Numbered from the stretch's first letter, positions 5,782 to 16,786 are shown. The stretch is DNA of 64,000 nucleotides from Alphaproteobacteria bacterium (GCA_965228975.1 OZ245851.1:4405953-4469952), one strand, 5' to 3'. Program-made: numbers and translations. Notes: a model not told the origin generated them from the sequence alone.

Positions 5782-6321
5782 GTGGTGAAACGTCTTCTCT
5801 TCATCATCCCGCTGGTCCTGTTCCTGGGAATTGCCGGATATCTCGGTTACGGACTGACGCGGGATTCCCGGATCCTGCCGTCGACGTTGATCGACAAGCC
5901 GGCGCCGACCTTCTCACTGGAGGCGTTGATCCCCGGCGGCAACGGGCTCAAGACCGAAGACCTTAAGGGCAAGGTGGCGCTGGTGAACGTCTTTGCCTCC
6001 TGGTGCGTGCCCTGCCGGGCCGAGCATCCGATCTGGGTGCGCGTGGCCAAGCAGGAGAAGATCCCGATCTACGGTATCAACTGGAAAGACAAGCGCCCGG
6101 ACGCGATCGCCTGGCTGGACGAACTCGGCAACCCCTATCAACGGATCGGGTTCGACCCGGACCACAAGGGGGGCGTCGAATGGGGCGTCTACGGCGCGCC
6201 CGAGACCTATGTCATCGACCGGGAAGGCCGGGTTCGGTACAAGCATGTCGGCCCGGTATTTTCCGAGACCTTGAACGACACGATCCTGCCTCTGGTGCGA
6301 AAGCTGCAGGAAGACGGATGA
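5782..6321 (+). CDS. ccmG: Thiol:disulfide oxidoreductase CcmG/DsbE
   Basis: Thioredoxin fold with WCVPCRAE active site. N-terminal anchor, GTG start. Confidence 0.9.
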   Translation: MVKRLLFIIPLVLFLGIAGYLGYGLTRDSRILPSTLIDKPAPTFSLEALIPGGNGLKTEDLKGKVALVNVFASWCVPCRAEHPIWVRVAKQEKIPIYGINWKDKRPDAIAWLDELGNPYQRIGFDPDHKGGVEWGVYGAPETYVIDREGRVRYKHVGPVFSETLNDTILPLVRKLQEDG

Positions 6322-6839
6322 TGCGCCAAGCTCTAACCGTTACGCTACTGATGTCCCTATTGGTCCTGGGCGGGCCGGGACTGGCGGTGCAGCCGGACGA
6401 AGTTCTGCCGGACCCGGCACAGGAAGCCCGGGCACGCGCCCTTTCCGCCGAAATCCGCTGCCTCGTCTGCCAGAATCAATCGATCGACGATTCCGACGCG
6501 ACCCTTGCCCGCGACCTGCGGCTGCTCGTGCGCGAGCAGATCAAGGAGGGTAAGTCCGATCAGGGTATCCGCGATTTCCTGGTCGAACGATACGGCGATT
6601 TCGTGTTGTTGAAACCGCCGATGAGAGCCAGCACCTGGCTGTTATGGTACGGCCCGCTGATCGTCTTCGCCATCGGTGTGATCGGACTGTTCGTATTCTT
6701 CCGGACGCGTTCGGGTGGCGATACCGCCGCCGCGCCGACCTTGAGCGCCGAGGAGCAGGCGCGCGTCGAACGGCTGCTCGACGACTTGGATCCGGCGCCG
6801 GACGATGACGGCGAATCCGGAAGGGGCGACAAGGCATGA
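6318..6839 (+). CDS. ccmH: Cytochrome c-type biogenesis protein CcmH (CcmL)
   Basis: Internal ATG at 6318 of ORF 6003..6839, forming an ATGA overlap with ccmG. Signal peptide plus IRCLVCQNQSIDDSDA motif. Confidence 0.85.
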   Translation: MMRQALTVTLLMSLLVLGGPGLAVQPDEVLPDPAQEARARALSAEIRCLVCQNQSIDDSDATLARDLRLLVREQIKEGKSDQGIRDFLVERYGDFVLLKPPMRASTWLLWYGPLIVFAIGVIGLFVFFRTRSGGDTAAAPTLSAEEQARVERLLDDLDPAPDDDGESGRGDKA

Positions 6840-11731: not shown

Positions 11732-12046
11732 CTAGCGCCAGCCCGGCGTATGGCTGGAGCGCCGCAGGACGATCCAGCCGCCGACTGCCGAGGCAATCAA
11801 CATCAGGGCCGCCGCACTGCCGTAGGTCCAGCGGGGCAACACGCCGAGCGCGCCCAACAACACGATCGGCAGCAGCAGCGCCACGATTACCCAGGTGCCG
11901 AGAACCGCGCGGGCAACGAGCCGCCGTTGACGCTCCGACCGAATGCGCCGAACCGAATTGATGGTGGTGACGATCGCGACCAGGCATGCAAGTACAGGCA
12001 AGGCCCAGGTGGCGATCACGCCAAGTGTGGCCGTTTCCACGATCAC
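11732..12046 (-). CDS. Small hypothetical membrane protein (about 3 TM)
   Basis: 104 aa ORF with three hydrophobic segments. No family recognised. Confidence 0.45.
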   Translation of the reverse strand: MIVETATLGVIATWALPVLACLVAIVTTINSVRRIRSERQRRLVARAVLGTWVIVALLLPIVLLGALGVLPRWTYGSAAALMLIASAVGGWIVLRRSSHTPGWR

Positions 12047-12305: not shown

Positions 12306-13355
12306 ATGCCGTTATTTCGCTTGAACATTCGACTACCGATCTTGACATCCGTCGTGGCCCATGTCGCGGTCGCCTCGACGACCTATTATCTAGCAACGCT
12401 CGATGAATACGACCCCACCCGACGGGAAAATCAGATCAATATGGTGTTTCTGCCGCCGCCGGTCCTGGCGGTCGAACAAAAGCCGGTGCCGCTCCCACCG
12501 GCGCCGCCCGTCGAGACCACCCCCGTCGCCCCGATTCCGGTCGAGCCGCCGCCCGCCGAGCCAATTCCCGATGCGGTCGCGGTCCCCGTGCCGAAACCGG
12601 AGCCGCCGAAGAAGCCGGTGCCGGAACCGGAACCGAGGCCCGAGCCGGTCGTGGCCAAGCCGTCGTCGCCAGAGCCGGAGCCAGAGCCGAAACCGACACC
12701 GGTAACCGAACCGGCGCCGAAACCGCAGTCCGCGCCGCAGCCACCACAGCCCGCCATCGTCGACCCGCCGCCCGCGCCGCGGCCGGATCTGCAGAAGATG
12801 CTGAAATCGCTGATTGCCTATCCCTGGTCGGCACGGATCAATTGCGAGCAGCGGATTGCGCTGGTCCGCTTGACCGTCAATGCGGACGGTTGGATCTCGA
12901 AATACAAGATCCTCCGCGGTACCGGCTACGGACCGGTCGACGCGGCGATTGGCGACAACATAATGCGCGCCCCGCGCCTGCCCTTGCCAGCCGGGACCAA
13001 ATTGCCCGAACGGTCGGAGGTGATCGTGCCGGTCGCGGTCACCTTGCCGGATTGTTCCGACCAATTCGCCGCCGTCGAGGAAGAGGGCAACGAAGGGTTC
13101 GACGACGATCCCGGACCGGACGACGGCGAAGTCGACCCCATGGGGATCGGGTCGGCGGCGCTGACCGATCAAGAAACGAGATTGGGCTTTACGGACGACC
13201 ATGGACCGTTGGACGGCGAGGTCGAACCGACCGGCCCGGGGCCGGACGATCTCACCGATCAGGAAACGGGCGATCAGGACGACCCGTTCATCCAGCCGCT
13301 AGAATGCACCTTGTTCAGGATCAATTGCACCCCTGACGAAACCAAAGTCCGCTAA
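12306..13355 (+). CDS. TonB-like energy transducer with an extra acidic C-terminal extension
   Basis: TM segment with S-x3-H signature (TSVVAH). Long Pro-rich PEPEPKP linker. TonB-C-like domain (ALVRLTVNADGWISKYKILRGTGYGPVDAA). Then an acidic tail of roughly 85-90 aa containing an internal duplication. Confidence 0.7.
   Translation: MPLFRLNIRLPILTSVVAHVAVASTTYYLATLDEYDPTRRENQINMVFLPPPVLAVEQKPVPLPPAPPVETTPVAPIPVEPPPAEPIPDAVAVPVPKPEPPKKPVPEPEPRPEPVVAKPSSPEPEPEPKPTPVTEPAPKPQSAPQPPQPAIVDPPPAPRPDLQKMLKSLIAYPWSARINCEQRIALVRLTVNADGWISKYKILRGTGYGPVDAAIGDNIMRAPRLPLPAGTKLPERSEVIVPVAVTLPDCSDQFAAVEEEGNEGFDDDPGPDDGEVDPMGIGSAALTDQETRLGFTDDHGPLDGEVEPTGPGPDDLTDQETGDQDDPFIQPLECTLFRINCTPDETKVR
13122..13267 (+). 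repeat. In-frame imperfect duplication, 90 nt period, inside the TonB-like tail
   Basis: GACGGCGAAGTCGACCCC...CTGACCGATCAAGAAACG at 13122-13177 compared with GACGGCGAGGTCGAACCG...CTCACCGATCAGGAAACG at 13212-13267. These encode DGEVDP..LTDQET and DGEVEP..LTDQET. Confidence 0.8.
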
Positions 13356-13361
13356 CGCCGT

Positions 13362-14366
13362 TTAGGTGAACAGTCTTTCGCCCGGCATGTCCTTATAGAG
13401 ATCGGCGACGAATTCACCGTAACCGTTGTAGAGCAGCGTCGGAACCCGGCCATTGGCGCCGAGCACGCGTTCGGTCGCCTGGCTCCACCGTGGATGCGGC
13501 ACTTCCGGGTTCACGTTGGCCCAAAAACCGTATTCACGGCTTTGGAGCTGTTCCCAGAAGCTGACCGGGCGTTTATCGGTGAATTCGAACCGCACGAGGC
13601 CCTTGATCGACTTGAAACCGTATTTCCACGGCACCGCAAGGCGCAAGGGCGCGCCATTCTGTTTCGGCATCGTCTTGCCGTAGATGCCGGTCGCCATGAA
13701 GGCGAGCTCGTTCGTCGCCTCGGCCAGGCTGAGCCCTTCGACATAGGGCCAGGGATACCAGCTCTCGCTTTGACCGGGGGCCACCTTTTTGTTCTCGAAG
13801 GTCACCATCTTCACGTATTTCGCCGACGAGAGCGGCCGGGCCAGATCGACCAGGGCCTTCATCGGAAATCCGCTCCACGGCACCGTCATCGACCAGGCTT
13901 CGACGCACCGGAACCGATAGAGCCGCTCTTCCAGCGGCATCTTGGCCAGCAAGTCGTCTATGCCGATCTCGAACTCCTTCTCGACCTGACCGGCGATCGC
14001 GATCGTCCAAGGCCGGATCGGCAGGAGTTGGGCCTTCTCATGGATATTCTTCGAGGAGCCGAATTCGTAATAGTTGGTGTAGGTCGTCGCCAACTTCTCC
14101 GCGGTCAATGGACGATCGACCGTGTATTTCGGGTTACGGTCGACCGGATAGAGCTTCGCGGACGGATCGGGAATCTTGGCCCCCGCCTCCAGCGCCGCCC
14201 TCTCGGCGGGGTCACCGCCGTCGCAGGCGGACAACAACGCCGGCGCGCCTAGGAGGATCGGACCCGCGGCGGCCGCCTTGATCAGGCGCCGGCGACTGCG
14301 AAACAGGCTTTCGGGGGTCGCCGCCGATTCCGGCAGTTCCCACCCCTTCGGTATGCGGATCAGCAT
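13362..14366 (-). CDS. msrP: Periplasmic protein-methionine-sulfoxide reductase catalytic subunit MsrP (YedY-type molybdoenzyme)
   Basis: Tat-type leader (SRRRLIKAAAAGPILLGAPALL). YedY-like body (YEFGSSK, RFRCVEAWSMTVPWSGFP, NGAPLRLAVPWKYGFKSIK). Confidence 0.85.
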   Translation of the reverse strand: MLIRIPKGWELPESAATPESLFRSRRRLIKAAAAGPILLGAPALLSACDGGDPAERAALEAGAKIPDPSAKLYPVDRNPKYTVDRPLTAEKLATTYTNYYEFGSSKNIHEKAQLLPIRPWTIAIAGQVEKEFEIGIDDLLAKMPLEERLYRFRCVEAWSMTVPWSGFPMKALVDLARPLSSAKYVKMVTFENKKVAPGQSESWYPWPYVEGLSLAEATNELAFMATGIYGKTMPKQNGAPLRLAVPWKYGFKSIKGLVRFEFTDKRPVSFWEQLQSREYGFWANVNPEVPHPRWSQATERVLGANGRVPTLLYNGYGEFVADLYKDMPGERLFT

Positions 14367-14524
14367 TCTCGTCTCCTCGGTCGCTGGTTTCCCGGATCAT
14401 CGCATGCAAGAGATATGGCGGCGAGGGCCACCATCGTCCACCCAGCACGCAACGGGGAACGGTGATGACGCCTCGACCGACACATGAAGGCGCTGCGCTT
14501 AGCGCAAGCGTTACCCTGGGAGGG

Positions 14525-14809
14525 TTACTTCTTGGCCTTGCAGGGGTTGCAAGGGCTGCAGGCCTTCTTCGCGGCGCAGGGGTTGCAGGCCTTTTTGGCC
14601 GCGCAAGGATTCTTGGCAGCGCACGGATTGCACGCATTCTTGGCCGCGCACGGGTTCTTGCCGGCACACGGGTTGGCCTTGCAGGCGGCGAGCTGAATGC
14701 GCTCACCGGCAACGGCGGTCGCCGTCGGCAAGGCAGCGGCGCTCGAGAGGGCAACGGCGGCGCCAAGCGCCATGGCGGTGCGAGCGAGCGGCAATTTCTT
14801 TTTCTGCAT
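14525..14809 (-). CDS. Secreted cysteine-rich NPCAAK-repeat mini-protein (94 aa, 11 Cys in the last 52 residues)
   Basis: ATG at 14809 is preceded by GGAGAA. Sec-type signal peptide MQKKKLPLARTAMALGAAVALSSAAALPTATAVA. Mature part is ACKANPCAGKNPCAAKNACNPCAAKNPCAAKKACNPCAAKKACSPCNPCKAKK. Confidence 0.65.
   Translation of the reverse strand: MQKKKLPLARTAMALGAAVALSSAAALPTATAVAGERIQLAACKANPCAGKNPCAAKNACNPCAAKNPCAAKKACNPCAAKKACSPCNPCKAKK
14527..14700 (-). repeat. Degenerate in-frame tandem DNA repeats encoding the NPCAAK units
   Basis: Recurring GCAGGGGTTGCA / GCGCAAGGATTCTTGGC / GCGCACGGGTTCTTGCC-type units on the plus strand. The repeat reads through in both strands' frames. Confidence 0.8.
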
Positions 14810-14926
14810 AATAATTTTCTCCAAACGCGTTTGTCGGACCCTCTTGGCGGAGCCCGGAAGCCTCTCGGCCCATCCGCACCGCAATGCACGGCGGAGAGGC
14901 CATATCATGGAGTGTCGCAAAACGAC

Positions 14927-14965
14927 GTAAAGTCCCGATAAGGAAGTCTTAAAGATTTTGTAAGG
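14927..14965 (-). promoter_or_regulatory. Four direct hexamers at exact 11-bp phasing: candidate OmpR-family response-regulator binding array
   Basis: Plus-strand GTAAAG (14927), ATAAGG (14938), TTAAAG (14949), GTAAGG (14960). On the coding strand: CCTTAC-N5-CTTTAA-N5-CCTTAT-N5-CTTTAC. Lies 118-156 bp upstream of the Cys-rich gene start. Confidence 0.45.
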
Positions 14966-14994
14966 GCAAAATCGCCCTGAAACCGGCGGTTTCA
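14963..14994 (-). terminator. Two adjacent stem-loops at the end of the histidine kinase gene (possible terminator)
   Basis: TGAAACC-GCC-GGTTTCA overlaps the kinase stop. It is followed by AGGGC-GATTTT-GCCCT and then TACAAAATCTTT (minus-strand reading). Confidence 0.35.
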
Positions 14995-16056
14995 GCGCGC
15001 CAACGCGAACCAGAAACGGACATCGCCGTCCTCGGCTTCCGCCCCGACCTGGCCGCCATGCGCTTCGACCAACTCTTTCACGATGGTGAGGCCGATCCCC
15101 GCGCCGCCGCTGTCGCGCGACCGCGACTTATCGACCCGGTAGAAACGCTCGAAGATAAGCGGCAGGTCCGCCGCCTCGATCCCGGCCGCCGAATTGGTGA
15201 AGGACACGGTAACGTCGTCACCCTCATTCTCGGCCACGACCGTAAGCGTGCCGCCGTCCGGCGTGTACTGCCAGGCGTTCTGGGTCAGGTTGCGCAACAC
15301 CTGCAGCAGCTTGTCCCGGTCGCCTTGCACGATCAGCGGCTCTGCCGGCAGCTTCGTCTCCACGGTGATGCCGCGTGATTGGAACTGAAAGCGGTCGAGT
15401 TCCAATGCCTGCGCGATCAGGGCGGGCAGGTCGACCTGCTGGCGGCTGAGAAACGCCTTCGCCGCATCGGCCTTGGTGAGCTGATGCAGGCTCTCGACCA
15501 ACCTGACGAGGCGCATGATCTCGTCCTGCAGAATCGCGAAGGTTCCCTTGTTCGCCTCGACCACGCCGTCGTCCATCGCCTCGAAATACCCGCGCAGGCT
15601 TGTCAACGGCGTCCGCAGTTCATGGGCAAGGTCGACAACCATCGTGCGCCGAAGGCCCTCGATCTTCTCCAGGCTGTCCGCCATGCGATTGAACGCCAGC
15701 CCCAACCGGCCCACCTCGTCCTTGGAGGTCACCTCGACCCGCGCGGAATAGTCACCCGCCGCGACGCGCTGGCTGATCTCGGTCATCTGCGACAACGGCC
15801 GCAGCACCGTCCGCGTCAGCAGGAAACTGAGCAGTACGGCAATCGCCGCCGCCACGATGCTGGCTTGAATCAGATACCCGTGCACCGATTCGACGAACAT
15901 CCTGTGCGTGTCGGAGGGCGAAATCTTGTACTCCTCCATCAGCACGGTGAAGTAGTCGGCGGCCAGGAAATCCACCGCGAACCAGACGATCAGGATCACC
16001 GTTCCGATGACGGGCAGGTTGATCGCCAGCAGTTTCCACAAAAGCTTGTCGCGCAT
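14992..16056 (-). CDS. Sensor histidine kinase (two TM segments, short periplasmic loop, HAMP, HisKA, HATPase)
   Basis: ATG at 16056 (MRDKLLWKLLAINLPV...). H-box LAHELRTPLTSLRGY. N-box LRNLTQNAWQYT. G-boxes DSGGAGIGLTIVKELVEAHGG. Confidence 0.85.
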   Translation of the reverse strand: MRDKLLWKLLAINLPVIGTVILIVWFAVDFLAADYFTVLMEEYKISPSDTHRMFVESVHGYLIQASIVAAAIAVLLSFLLTRTVLRPLSQMTEISQRVAAGDYSARVEVTSKDEVGRLGLAFNRMADSLEKIEGLRRTMVVDLAHELRTPLTSLRGYFEAMDDGVVEANKGTFAILQDEIMRLVRLVESLHQLTKADAAKAFLSRQQVDLPALIAQALELDRFQFQSRGITVETKLPAEPLIVQGDRDKLLQVLRNLTQNAWQYTPDGGTLTVVAENEGDDVTVSFTNSAAGIEAADLPLIFERFYRVDKSRSRDSGGAGIGLTIVKELVEAHGGQVGAEAEDGDVRFWFALAR

Positions 16057-16072
16057 ATTCGGCTCCTGGCCG

Positions 16073-16786
16073 TTAGGGGGATTTGGGATCGGCGAAGCGA
16101 TAGCCGACGCCGTGCACCGTGAGCAGGAATTGCGGCGTCGACGGATCCGGCTCCAGCTTCTGCCGCAGCTTGCCCATGTGAACATCGATGACGCGGTCGA
16201 CCACCACCCCGCCGTTGTCGTACAGCCGGTCGAGCAACTCGTCACGGCTGAAGACCTTGCCCGGCGCCTGCATCATCGTCTGCAACAGCTTGAATTCCGA
16301 TGGCGTCAGGGCGACGTCGGCGCCATCGACGCTGACCGCGTGCCGCTCCGGGTCCAGCCGGATCGGTCCGGATTCCAGAACGGTGCTGGCGACGGGCTCG
16401 GTACGCGCCGAGGTGCGGCGCAGGATCGCCTTCACCCGCTCCACCAATTCGCGGGGACTGAACGGTTTGACGACATAGTCGTCGGCACCGATCGACAAAC
16501 CGACCACACGGTCCATTTCCTCGGCGCGCGCCGTCAGCATCAGGATCGGTACATCGGAGTCCCGCCGCAGTGCCCGGCATACCTCCCAGCCGTCCATCCC
16601 GGGCAGGTTGATGTCCAAGATCACCAGGGCCGGGTCCTCGCGCCGCGCCAGCGCCAGACCGTTGTCGCCATCGCCGGCGCTCACCGTCTCGAAGCCGTCC
16701 TTCTGCAAATACTGCTCGACCAACGACGCGATATTGCGGTCGTCCTCGACGATCAGGATCGGCCGGCGGGGCTGTGGATCGGACAT
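16073..16786 (-). CDS. OmpR/PhoB-family response regulator
   Basis: ATG at 16786 (MSDPQPRRPILIVEDDRNIA...). Receiver domain (ILDINLPGMDG, ADDYVVKPFSPREL). Winged-helix C-terminus (LTPSEFKLLQ..., TVHGVGYRF). Confidence 0.9.
   Translation of the reverse strand: MSDPQPRRPILIVEDDRNIASLVEQYLQKDGFETVSAGDGDNGLALARREDPALVILDINLPGMDGWEVCRALRRDSDVPILMLTARAEEMDRVVGLSIGADDYVVKPFSPRELVERVKAILRRTSARTEPVASTVLESGPIRLDPERHAVSVDGADVALTPSEFKLLQTMMQAPGKVFSRDELLDRLYDNGGVVVDRVIDVHMGKLRQKLEPDPSTPQFLLTVHGVGYRFADPKSP

Follow-up and report, generated by a model that had tools for sequence, protein, structure and literature searches.

A stretch of 64,000 nucleotides (nt) of DNA from an Alphaproteobacteria bacterium, here called the window, encodes a small secreted cysteine-repeat peptide between a two-component system and msrP, the gene for the molybdoenzyme catalytic subunit of periplasmic methionine sulfoxide reductase. 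The peptide belongs to an undescribed family of secreted NPC-repeat proteins, in which a signal peptide is followed by tandem (C)NPC(NPC)AAK(K) units, and its reading frame is under purifying selection. The two-component system is a short-loop type that spans phyla and, judged by its sequence, is neither HprSR nor CusSR, and its response regulator probably binds an array of C(C/T)TTA pentamers in front of the peptide gene. The reading tentatively favoured here, at somewhat less than an even chance, is that the locus is an oxidant-induced envelope-stress operon in which the peptide would serve as a periplasmic sacrificial thiol sink, the cysteine counterpart of the peptide MrpX.

A conserved locus joining a two-component system, an NPC-repeat peptide and MsrP

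Four genes lie co-oriented on the minus strand, as the initial annotation of this DNA described and as the list of open reading frames (ORFs) and their translations bear out. The OmpR/PhoB-family response regulator (16073-16786, 237 amino acids (aa)) has Response_reg and Trans_reg_C domains, and the sensor histidine kinase (14992-16056, 354 aa) has HAMP, HisKA and HATPase_c domains. They are followed on the same strand by an element of four tandem C(C/T)TTA pentamers with 11-bp spacing, CCTTACAAAATCTTTAAGACTTCCTTATCGGGACTTTA (14928-14965), which is proposed as the regulator-binding site, by the NPC-repeat peptide gene (14525-14809, 94 aa, ATG at 14809), by a spacer with small stem-loops (14367-14524) and by msrP (13362-14366).

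This arrangement recurs in related loci, which were retrieved for comparison and are labelled L followed by a number. Seven of them were sampled independently through kinase orthologues (61-77% identity) and come from Alphaproteobacteria, a Nitrospinota bacterium and Desulfuromonas. The NPC peptide is the first downstream gene in six of the seven, and MsrP is present in all five peptide-bearing loci that are long enough to show it. L151 (kinase 77% identical) consists of regulator, kinase, NPC peptide and MsrP. In L152 (71%), proteins of 140 and 181 aa and Sco1 stand between the peptide and MsrP, an order that is shared by L157 (63%), with proteins of 146 and 176 aa, and by L154/L155 (62%), where the operon is detached by a gene on the opposite strand. 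L158 (63%) runs regulator, kinase, NPC peptide, a spondin-like protein, MsrP and proteins of 141 and 180 aa; the Nitrospinota contig (L159, 61%) has regulator, kinase and NPC peptide and ends there. The exception is Desulfuromonas versatilis (L156, AP024355.1, kinase 61% identical), in which regulator and kinase are followed by a small ORF, MsrB and a DUF7482 protein. The small ORF has 38 codons with a signal-like start and stands with msrB (SelR) behind a four-pentamer CTTTA element (L156:6065-6760); a pair of SurA-like isomerase genes is found close by on the opposite strand.

The nearest homologues of the peptide itself (60-75% identity) follow an orthologous kinase, precede MsrP, or do both. 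L083 encodes a regulator 73% identical to that of the window, a kinase of 73% identity whose loop is almost the same, the peptide, proteins of 143 and 181 aa and SCO1/SenC; L084 has kinase, peptide, proteins of 163 and 182 aa and SCO1, L087 has kinase, peptide and MsrP, and L086 has peptide and MsrP. SCO1/SenC and two secreted proteins with Cys/His motifs are found in the operons of L083, L084, L152, L154 and L157, and are missing from the window, L151, L086 and L087, all of which keep the peptide and MsrP. With peptide and MsrP only, the window operon is the minimal version among its relatives. The association of the peptide with the two-component system and msrP, which the initial annotation had proposed, therefore stands in orthologous loci, at kinase identities of at least 61% and across phyla, and is absent from most of the wider family discussed below.

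The two secreted Cys/His proteins (L083:5456-5887 and 5892-6437; L152:6673-7658; L036:3580-4275) have no Pfam or PDB match. The ~143-aa protein carries the motif C..H-H-x-C-x3-C and the ~181-aa protein the motif C-E-L-x-G-x-C-P-x2-C-G, and a fusion of the 143-aa type with NPC repeats is encoded in L036 (blastp E 8e-7). A related strain with ~95% identical proteins (L002:4057-7651) has a 4-kb insertion between kinase and peptide, made up of an insertion sequence element (rve/HTH_Tnp_1), a LysR-family gene, a DUF2306 gene and a 118-aa ORF, which leaves the element, the peptide gene and msrP intact.

The NPC-repeat peptide and its family

The peptide gene has a GGAG ribosome-binding site ~9 nt before its ATG. 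Residues 1-34 (nt 14708-14809, minus strand) form a predicted signal peptide with a Lys-rich, basic N-terminus, a hydrophobic core and A-V-A before G35; judged by inspection this leader is Sec-like, in line with the Sec signal that had been assigned to the 94-aa product. The mature part (60 residues, nt 14528-14707, minus strand) is a Cys/Lys-rich repeat made almost only of C, K, A, N, P and G, and it holds the 11 cysteines first reported, at residues 43-90 and equal to 18%, alongside 11 Lys+Arg. Acidic, aromatic, Met and His residues are all missing from it, and the isoelectric point (pI) is 9.4. Orthologous peptides keep a Lys:Cys ratio of ~1:1 and a pI of 9.2-9.7. Their Cys count drifts from 8 to 12 through Cys/Ser/Ala swaps, with the N-P-C-A-A-K unit retained.

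Where codons of the window peptide differ from those of its relatives, most of the changes are synonymous: 8 synonymous and 0 non-synonymous differences from L001, 15 and 3 from L088, 7 and 2 from L089, and 28 and 16 from L151. The minus-strand frame is thus conserved in relatives, as the initial annotation supposed, and the peptide is a real gene because substitutions are mostly synonymous and hundreds of homologues share the frame. A chance ORF across an 18/45-bp tandem repeat in GC-rich sequence might have been suspected from the DNA periodicities of 18, 27 and 45 bp at 14539-14675 (Tandem Repeats Finder) and from the plus-strand ORFs that overlap the gene, but the synonymous bias, the signal peptide, the ribosome-binding site and the same-frame homologues rule it out and leave that explanation with almost no probability.

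AlphaFold2, run with a 25-sequence alignment, returns a predicted local distance difference test score (pLDDT) of 46 overall and below 50 in the mature part, with no secondary structure. The lack of helices and the one proline per repeat agree with the earlier argument against a helical Csp-type fold. A Csp copper-storage protein was accordingly rejected as a candidate, there being no four-helix bundle in the AlphaFold2 model and a Pro in each repeat. A RiPP (ribosomally synthesized and post-translationally modified peptide) or bufferin precursor was also rejected because no modifying enzyme lies nearby: no MNIO/DUF692 or DUF2282/BUF-type Pfam family is found among the called genes of L001, L002, L083, L084 and L151-L159. 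The predicted model and the drifting cysteines suggest that the role of the peptide may rest on composition rather than fold.

A search of 5.8 billion proteins finds 211 homologues of the peptide at E<=0.01. Nearly all of them are 75-160 aa long and carry (C)NPC(NPC)AAK(K) repeats behind a signal peptide; each is annotated as hypothetical, and none contains a Pfam domain. When 1.84 billion cluster representatives were searched with a profile, 485 clusters (50% identity) matched at E<=0.001. The N-P-C-A-x-K columns are invariant in an alignment with 24 homologues. The peptide matches no Pfam or NCBIfam model, a PDB sequence search returns chance ribosomal-protein matches only, and full-text literature searches give nothing relevant on NPCAAK or CNPCNPC repeats or on periplasmic metallothionein-like proteins. 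The initial view that the peptide represents an uncharacterised family is borne out by these blanks.

A short-loop two-component system and its candidate promoter element

The only extracytoplasmic part of the kinase is a loop of ~30 residues, ADYFTVLMEEYKISPSDTHRMFVESVHGY, which lies between two predicted membrane helices just where the initial annotation had placed a short periplasmic loop. Its consensus, LAADYF..LME.Y.IsP..tHqMF.da.HrY, is conserved in 82 kinase homologues of the same length and includes invariant Met and His residues. The broader kinase family counts 7040 matches at E<1e-30, and identity is still 59-61% at the bottom of the 120 matches listed.

None of the named systems accommodates this pair. 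The best NCBIfam matches of the regulator (BaeR, MtrA, PhoB, HprR and CopR) all fall below cutoff, and for the system as a whole the WalK, MtrA, PhoB, CopRS and HprR models score, none at its curated cutoff. The best or near-best named models are BaeS (263 against a cutoff of 603) and BaeR (240.8 against 380), so that membership of BaeSR was rejected for kinase and regulator alike. HprSR orthology was rejected on an HprR model score of 155.5 bits against a cutoff of 353, on identities of 28% to HprS and 38% to HprR, and on the lack of a large periplasmic domain; a CusSR/CopRS heavy-metal system was rejected because neither protein reaches its model cutoff (kinase 196.9, cutoff 292.55; regulator 177.9, cutoff 279.2; TIGR01386, TIGR01387). 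The initial annotation drew on the gene order at HprSR, which cross-talks with CusSR; kinship with either is not supported, given these scores, the low identity to HprS and the ~30-residue loop.

The element upstream of the peptide gene has the form C(C/T)TTAC-AAAAT-CTTTAA-GACTT-C(C/T)TTAT-N5-CTTTA, with its three to four pentamers spaced 11 bp apart. The window copy, ~120-155 nt upstream of the peptide ATG, is the sole occurrence in the 64 kb with two mismatches allowed, against an expectation of 0.02 matches. Alignment of the kinase-peptide spacers of the window, L002, L083, L087 and L085 reveals it as an invariant block amid diverged sequence, and a recognisably similar element occupies the equivalent place in L151, L152, L154, L156, L157, L158 and L159; L084 has a truncated copy only. 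The element travels with the peptide when an insertion (L002) or another gene (L154) parts the peptide from the two-component system, and in Desulfuromonas (L156) it precedes msrB. OmpR/PhoB-family regulators usually bind tandem direct repeats spaced one helical turn apart, and the C(C/T)TTA repeats are likely to be the binding site of the adjacent regulator.

Other signals in the intergenic DNA are fainter. A scan for sigma-70 promoters and terminators found one weak promoter-like site over the start codon and no convincing terminator, and an Rfam scan found no match. Downstream of the peptide gene, GC-rich hairpins are found in L083 (z -5.7), L086 (z -2.0) and L087 (z -2.0), and the spacer between peptide and msrP may act as a partial terminator; the window spacer folds no better than its shuffles (z -0.7). 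The leader of the peptide gene (window 14810-14900, minus strand; L086:1-111; L087:640-743) holds a GC-rich segment, GGGC(C/T)CCGCC(A/G)AG(A/C)GGG(T/C)CC, just upstream of the ribosome-binding site, which is conserved in the window, L002, L086, L087 and L151. The predicted fold of the window leader is no better than that of shuffles (z -0.1).

MsrP without MsrQ

The assignment of msrP is secure: the protein scores 408.7 bits against the NCBIfam MsrP equivalog NF003767 (cutoff 207), matches PF00174 (Oxidored_molyb) at E 1.6e-28 and is 45% identical to E. coli MsrP. By inspection, its N-terminus carries a twin-arginine motif, S-R-R-R-L-I-K, and then a lipobox, L-L-S-A-C-D. The lipobox with Asp at +2 is kept in six orthologues (L086, L151, L152, L154, L157 and L158) and is lacking in E. 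coli MsrP. The twin-arginine translocation (Tat) motif and the Asp at +2 therefore predict a Tat lipoprotein retained at the inner membrane, unlike the soluble MsrP of E. coli. The description of msrP as an orphan is also upheld, for the window and 16 related loci, in which tblastn with E. coli MsrQ finds no match.

The downstream side of msrP is occupied instead by a convergent TonB-like gene (window 12306-13355, plus strand). Its product is rich in Pro over a long region, matches the TonB C-terminus weakly and ends in an unusual acidic extension in which the motif DGEV(D/E)P.G.G...LTDQET recurs. Farther on, a small membrane protein of ~100 aa is encoded beside a major facilitator superfamily (MFS) transporter (window 11732-12046, minus strand; L151:9150-9458; L152:9516-9815); it has the common motif RRRL.AR...W......LG.LPRW and is syntenic 3' of msrP in several loci.

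The wider NPC-repeat family

A more distant branch, of the CNPCNPCAAKK type, was sampled in 80 genome loci and 63 metagenome loci; the tight alignment used to find the loci skews the sample of genomes towards the CNPCNPC branch. A two-component system of the window type is absent from all 80 genome loci, and msrP is present within 8 kb in only one of them. Among the 63 metagenome loci, two-component system and msrP occur only in L088 and L089, which are near-identical to the window. For most of the wider family, then, the homologues are scattered without the link to a two-component system or msrP that the initial annotation had proposed, and the proposal fails there.

The distant repeats are associated with haem proteins. 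Long NPC arrays are fused N-terminal to a Cytochrome_P460 domain (PF16694) in 48 of the 80 genome loci (L021:7935-9275, L080:7260-9077, L045:7959-9149 and 45 further loci among L005-L082), with 11-56 NPC units between the signal peptide and the C-terminal domain and more than 100 Cys in L080, and a free NPC peptide gene often directly adjoins the fusion gene. In other distant loci NPC repeats stand on both flanks of a SoxA/TsdA-like monohaem cytochrome c domain with CxxCH (L052:5562-6368, L054:7896-8933, L071:7504-8481 and L018:1089-2036), a type that is common in metagenome loci L095-L149. Neighbours of the haem-NPC genes include a His-rich DUF6969 protein in 51 of the 80 loci (for example L003:3951-4670), a YeeE/YedE-like Sulf_transp membrane protein (L031:6000-7187) and a secreted protein of ~165 aa (168 aa at L003:1932-2438). 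Literature searches on DUF6969 and on cytochrome P460 with cysteine-rich repeats gave nothing relevant, and homologues of P460, DUF6969 and YeeE were sought in the window and are absent from it.

A further context is found in Kiloniellaceae (L048, L056, L065, L066, L069, L078 and L079), where the genes for a DedA/VTT membrane protein, a flavin adenine dinucleotide (FAD) oxidoreductase, a free NPC peptide and an unrelated kinase of ~490 aa follow one another in that order; in L110 just the DedA and oxidoreductase genes adjoin the peptide. The oxidoreductase is of the pyridine-nucleotide-disulfide type and MerA-like, and because it scores below the MerA cutoff it makes no clear link to mercury.

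Possible functions of the peptide

The favoured reading treats the locus as a self-contained envelope-stress module. The short-loop kinase and the OmpR-family regulator would activate a promoter with tandem C(C/T)TTA repeats; the 94-aa peptide would come first and would probably be the most plentiful product, and MsrP would be made by read-through, with relatives adding two secreted Cys/His proteins and Sco1. Exported via Sec and intrinsically disordered, the peptide would offer about ten reactive cysteines, each after Asn-Pro and flanked by Lys, and would work by bulk chemistry, spending its thiols on fast oxidants such as hypochlorous acid (HOCl), chloramines and the like, while MsrP would mend the methionine damage that escapes it. 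Since the shared content of the regulon is methionine-sulfoxide repair, the inducer is most likely a condition that damages sulfur amino acids in the periplasm, and the MrpX-like design with Cys in place of Met, the drift in Cys number and the lack of AlphaFold2 structure are the reasons for which a thiol sink is favoured. We infer an oxidant as the signal, export of the peptide and scavenging as its chemistry. A small secreted sacrificial peptide encoded with msrP, as the initial annotation envisaged, has an experimental precedent in MrpX of Azospira suillum, a peptide of 20% Met and 44% charged residues that is made together with MsrP/YedY under SigF control and acts as a sacrificial oxidant sink (PMC4436054). 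For HprS, periplasmic Met residues have been proposed as an HOCl-responsive redox switch that is reset by MsrP (bioRxiv 10.1101/2021.09.09.459708); that the Met in the kinase loop is an analogous switch is speculation.

Several points weigh against a thiol sink. Because MsrP cannot recycle oxidised Cys and the mature peptide has no Met, a redox cycle of the MrpX type is not directly applicable, and the operon encodes no reductant for the peptide. Thiols are hard to hold reduced in a periplasm that contains DsbA. The Sco1 and two Cys/His proteins in the fuller operon of relatives suit copper equally well. Finally, most members of the wider family are tied to haem proteins, DUF6969 and YeeE-like proteins, so the basic function of the repeat may differ.

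Could the peptide hold metal rather than spend thiols? It might buffer soft metals in the periplasm, Cu(I) being the likeliest, with metallothionein-like thiolate clusters; the His and Met of the kinase loop would sense copper, Sco1 and the Cys/His proteins would handle it, and MsrP would repair the methionine oxidation that copper causes. The fuller operons, with SCO1/SenC and the two secreted proteins between peptide and MsrP, speak for such a buffer, as do the L036 fusion of NPC repeats to the 143-aa Cys/His-type domain, the conserved H-x-M-F and H-R-Y motifs in the kinase loop and a set of classical metallothionein traits in the peptide: it is small, Cys/Lys-rich, free of aromatics and His, carries CxxC and would be disordered when metal-free. 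There is also an E. coli precedent, in which copper induces msrP and oxidises periplasmic methionines (PMC9302797). However, kinase and regulator fall below the heavy-metal model cutoffs (197 against 293 and 178 against 279 bits), no efflux pump, multicopper oxidase or CopC/CusF-type gene is seen in any locus, and the Desulfuromonas system is paired with MsrB only. Peptide and MsrP persist in the window, L151, L086 and L087, where Sco1 and its partners have been lost, and 18% Cys is under the level of true metallothioneins, in which the Cys fraction is usually ~30%. On balance a copper buffer seems somewhat unlikely. It is quite unlikely that the peptide serves the kinase as an accessory or feedback ligand, comparable to CpxP for CpxA or ZraP for ZraS, whose reduced form would hold the kinase off through the loop until oxidation or metal loading frees it, with strong induction resetting the system. 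The loop is too short for a ligand-binding domain yet highly conserved, the peptide comes first after the kinase in six of seven loci from two phyla, an adjacency kept at least as well as that to MsrP, and feedback circuits typically have a small periplasmic protein as the top member of the regulon, which a peptide heading this operon would fit. Against this, Desulfuromonas has kinase, regulator and cis element without an NPC peptide, a specific protein-protein interface would not be expected to drift in repeat number and Cys positions as the orthologues do, and NPC repeats are widespread without the kinase, including in the long haem-domain fusions.

Those same fusions prompt two other explanations. 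The repeats could be a redox relay or electron reservoir that feeds MsrP, without MsrQ, as well as P460 and SoxA-like domains, or else a carrier of sulfane sulfur. No msrQ adjoins msrP in these loci, MsrP is a predicted lipoprotein, 48 of the 80 genome loci have P460 fusions, and SoxA/TsdA-like flanking repeats and YeeE/YedE sulfur-transporter-like neighbours point the same way; but we know of no thiol-dependent reduction of a YedY-type molybdoenzyme, msrQ could sit elsewhere in the genome, no recharging reductase is encoded nearby and the idea comes from gene context alone, so that it has a very slight chance. A structural role, with the peptide as a DsbA-oxidised, disulfide-stapled extended spacer or an envelope polycation that does no buffering, is very unlikely. 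It would account for the strongly basic character of the peptide and for the fusions in which repeats act as long linkers of variable length between signal peptide and catalytic domain, but it leaves the stress-type regulation with Msr enzymes unexplained, and the odd or variable Cys counts, the Cys/Ser swaps and the absence of a predicted fold do not fit it. A more general proposal, itself unlikely, would make the NPC repeats a new periplasmic poly-cysteine module, a portable thiol 'capacitor' or ligand array, free or haem-fused, that exchanges electrons, sulfur or metal with a partner redox enzyme, and would make the short-loop kinase and C(C/T)TTA-box regulator a new phylum-spanning sensor of envelope Met/Cys oxidation.

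Comparison with known systems

Periplasmic oxidant defence is known from a few models (HprSR-MsrPQ, SigF-YedYZ-MrpX and OrhKR), to which the locus adds a third regulatory solution: a widespread short-loop system with a recognisable promoter box, which would govern MsrP in Alphaproteobacteria and MsrB in Desulfuromonas. The secreted cysteine-repeat peptide is a new type of effector with neither a family model nor a literature. If it is indeed a thiol sink, bacteria spend Cys as well as Met in an oxidising compartment, and how the thiols stay reduced becomes the question. The wider NPC family, with up to 56 units on P460 and SoxA-like domains, points to a redox or sulfur chemistry in the periplasm of marine bacteria that has yet to be explored.

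The closest parallel in design is the yedY1Z1-mrpX operon with its SigF/NrsF control, where a small, Sec-exported, low-complexity peptide with one oxidisable sulfur residue and many charges is likewise encoded in an MsrP operon under a dedicated regulator (PMC4436054). The two peptides have no sequence relationship: here there is ~18% Cys and no Met, compared with 20% Met in MrpX, and because Cys stands in for Met, MsrP is unable to regenerate the NPC peptide. The NPC peptide gene comes first in its operon, mrpX last; a two-component system takes the place of the extracytoplasmic function (ECF) sigma and anti-sigma factors, and there is no MsrQ/YedZ. In regulation, the locus resembles OrhKR of uropathogenic E. 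coli, which controls an msrQP-like pair and an MrpX-like peptide (c3566-c3568) (PMC8550376), and HprSR-hiuH-msrPQ. In each an OmpR-type two-component system adjoins a periplasmic Msr operon, with direct control known in the E. coli cases, and the operon of OrhKR also has a small peptide, in that case sacrificial. Unlike them, the present system has a ~30-residue loop, C(C/T)TTA repeats at 11 bp in the promoter and no msrQ; HprS carries a large periplasmic domain with Met72 and Met153, and the kinase here has no such domain.

The likeness to metallothioneins of the SmtA type and to Csp1/Csp3 lies in small size, richness in Cys, Lys-rich spacing, absence of aromatics and the CxxC motif, and Csp1 is also exported. 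The NPC peptide differs in matching no Pfam or NCBIfam model and in its fewer Cys, regular NPCAAK repeat, and predicted Sec export and disorder. As with CpxP, Spy and ZraP, a small periplasmic protein lies beside a two-component system as its apparent prime target, and the reverse complement of the cis element (GTAAA-N6-TTAAA-N6-ATAAG) resembles CpxR half-sites. The spacing is 11 bp rather than the 10 bp of the CpxR box, however, the regulator scores 165 bits against the CpxR cutoff of 341, and the peptide has no LTXXQ helical fold and no sequence similarity to those proteins. What is new here is the NPC family, the short-loop system with its C(C/T)TTA box, a predicted Tat-lipoprotein MsrP without MsrQ, and a modular operon that includes Sco1 and two Cys/His proteins in some loci and lacks them in others.

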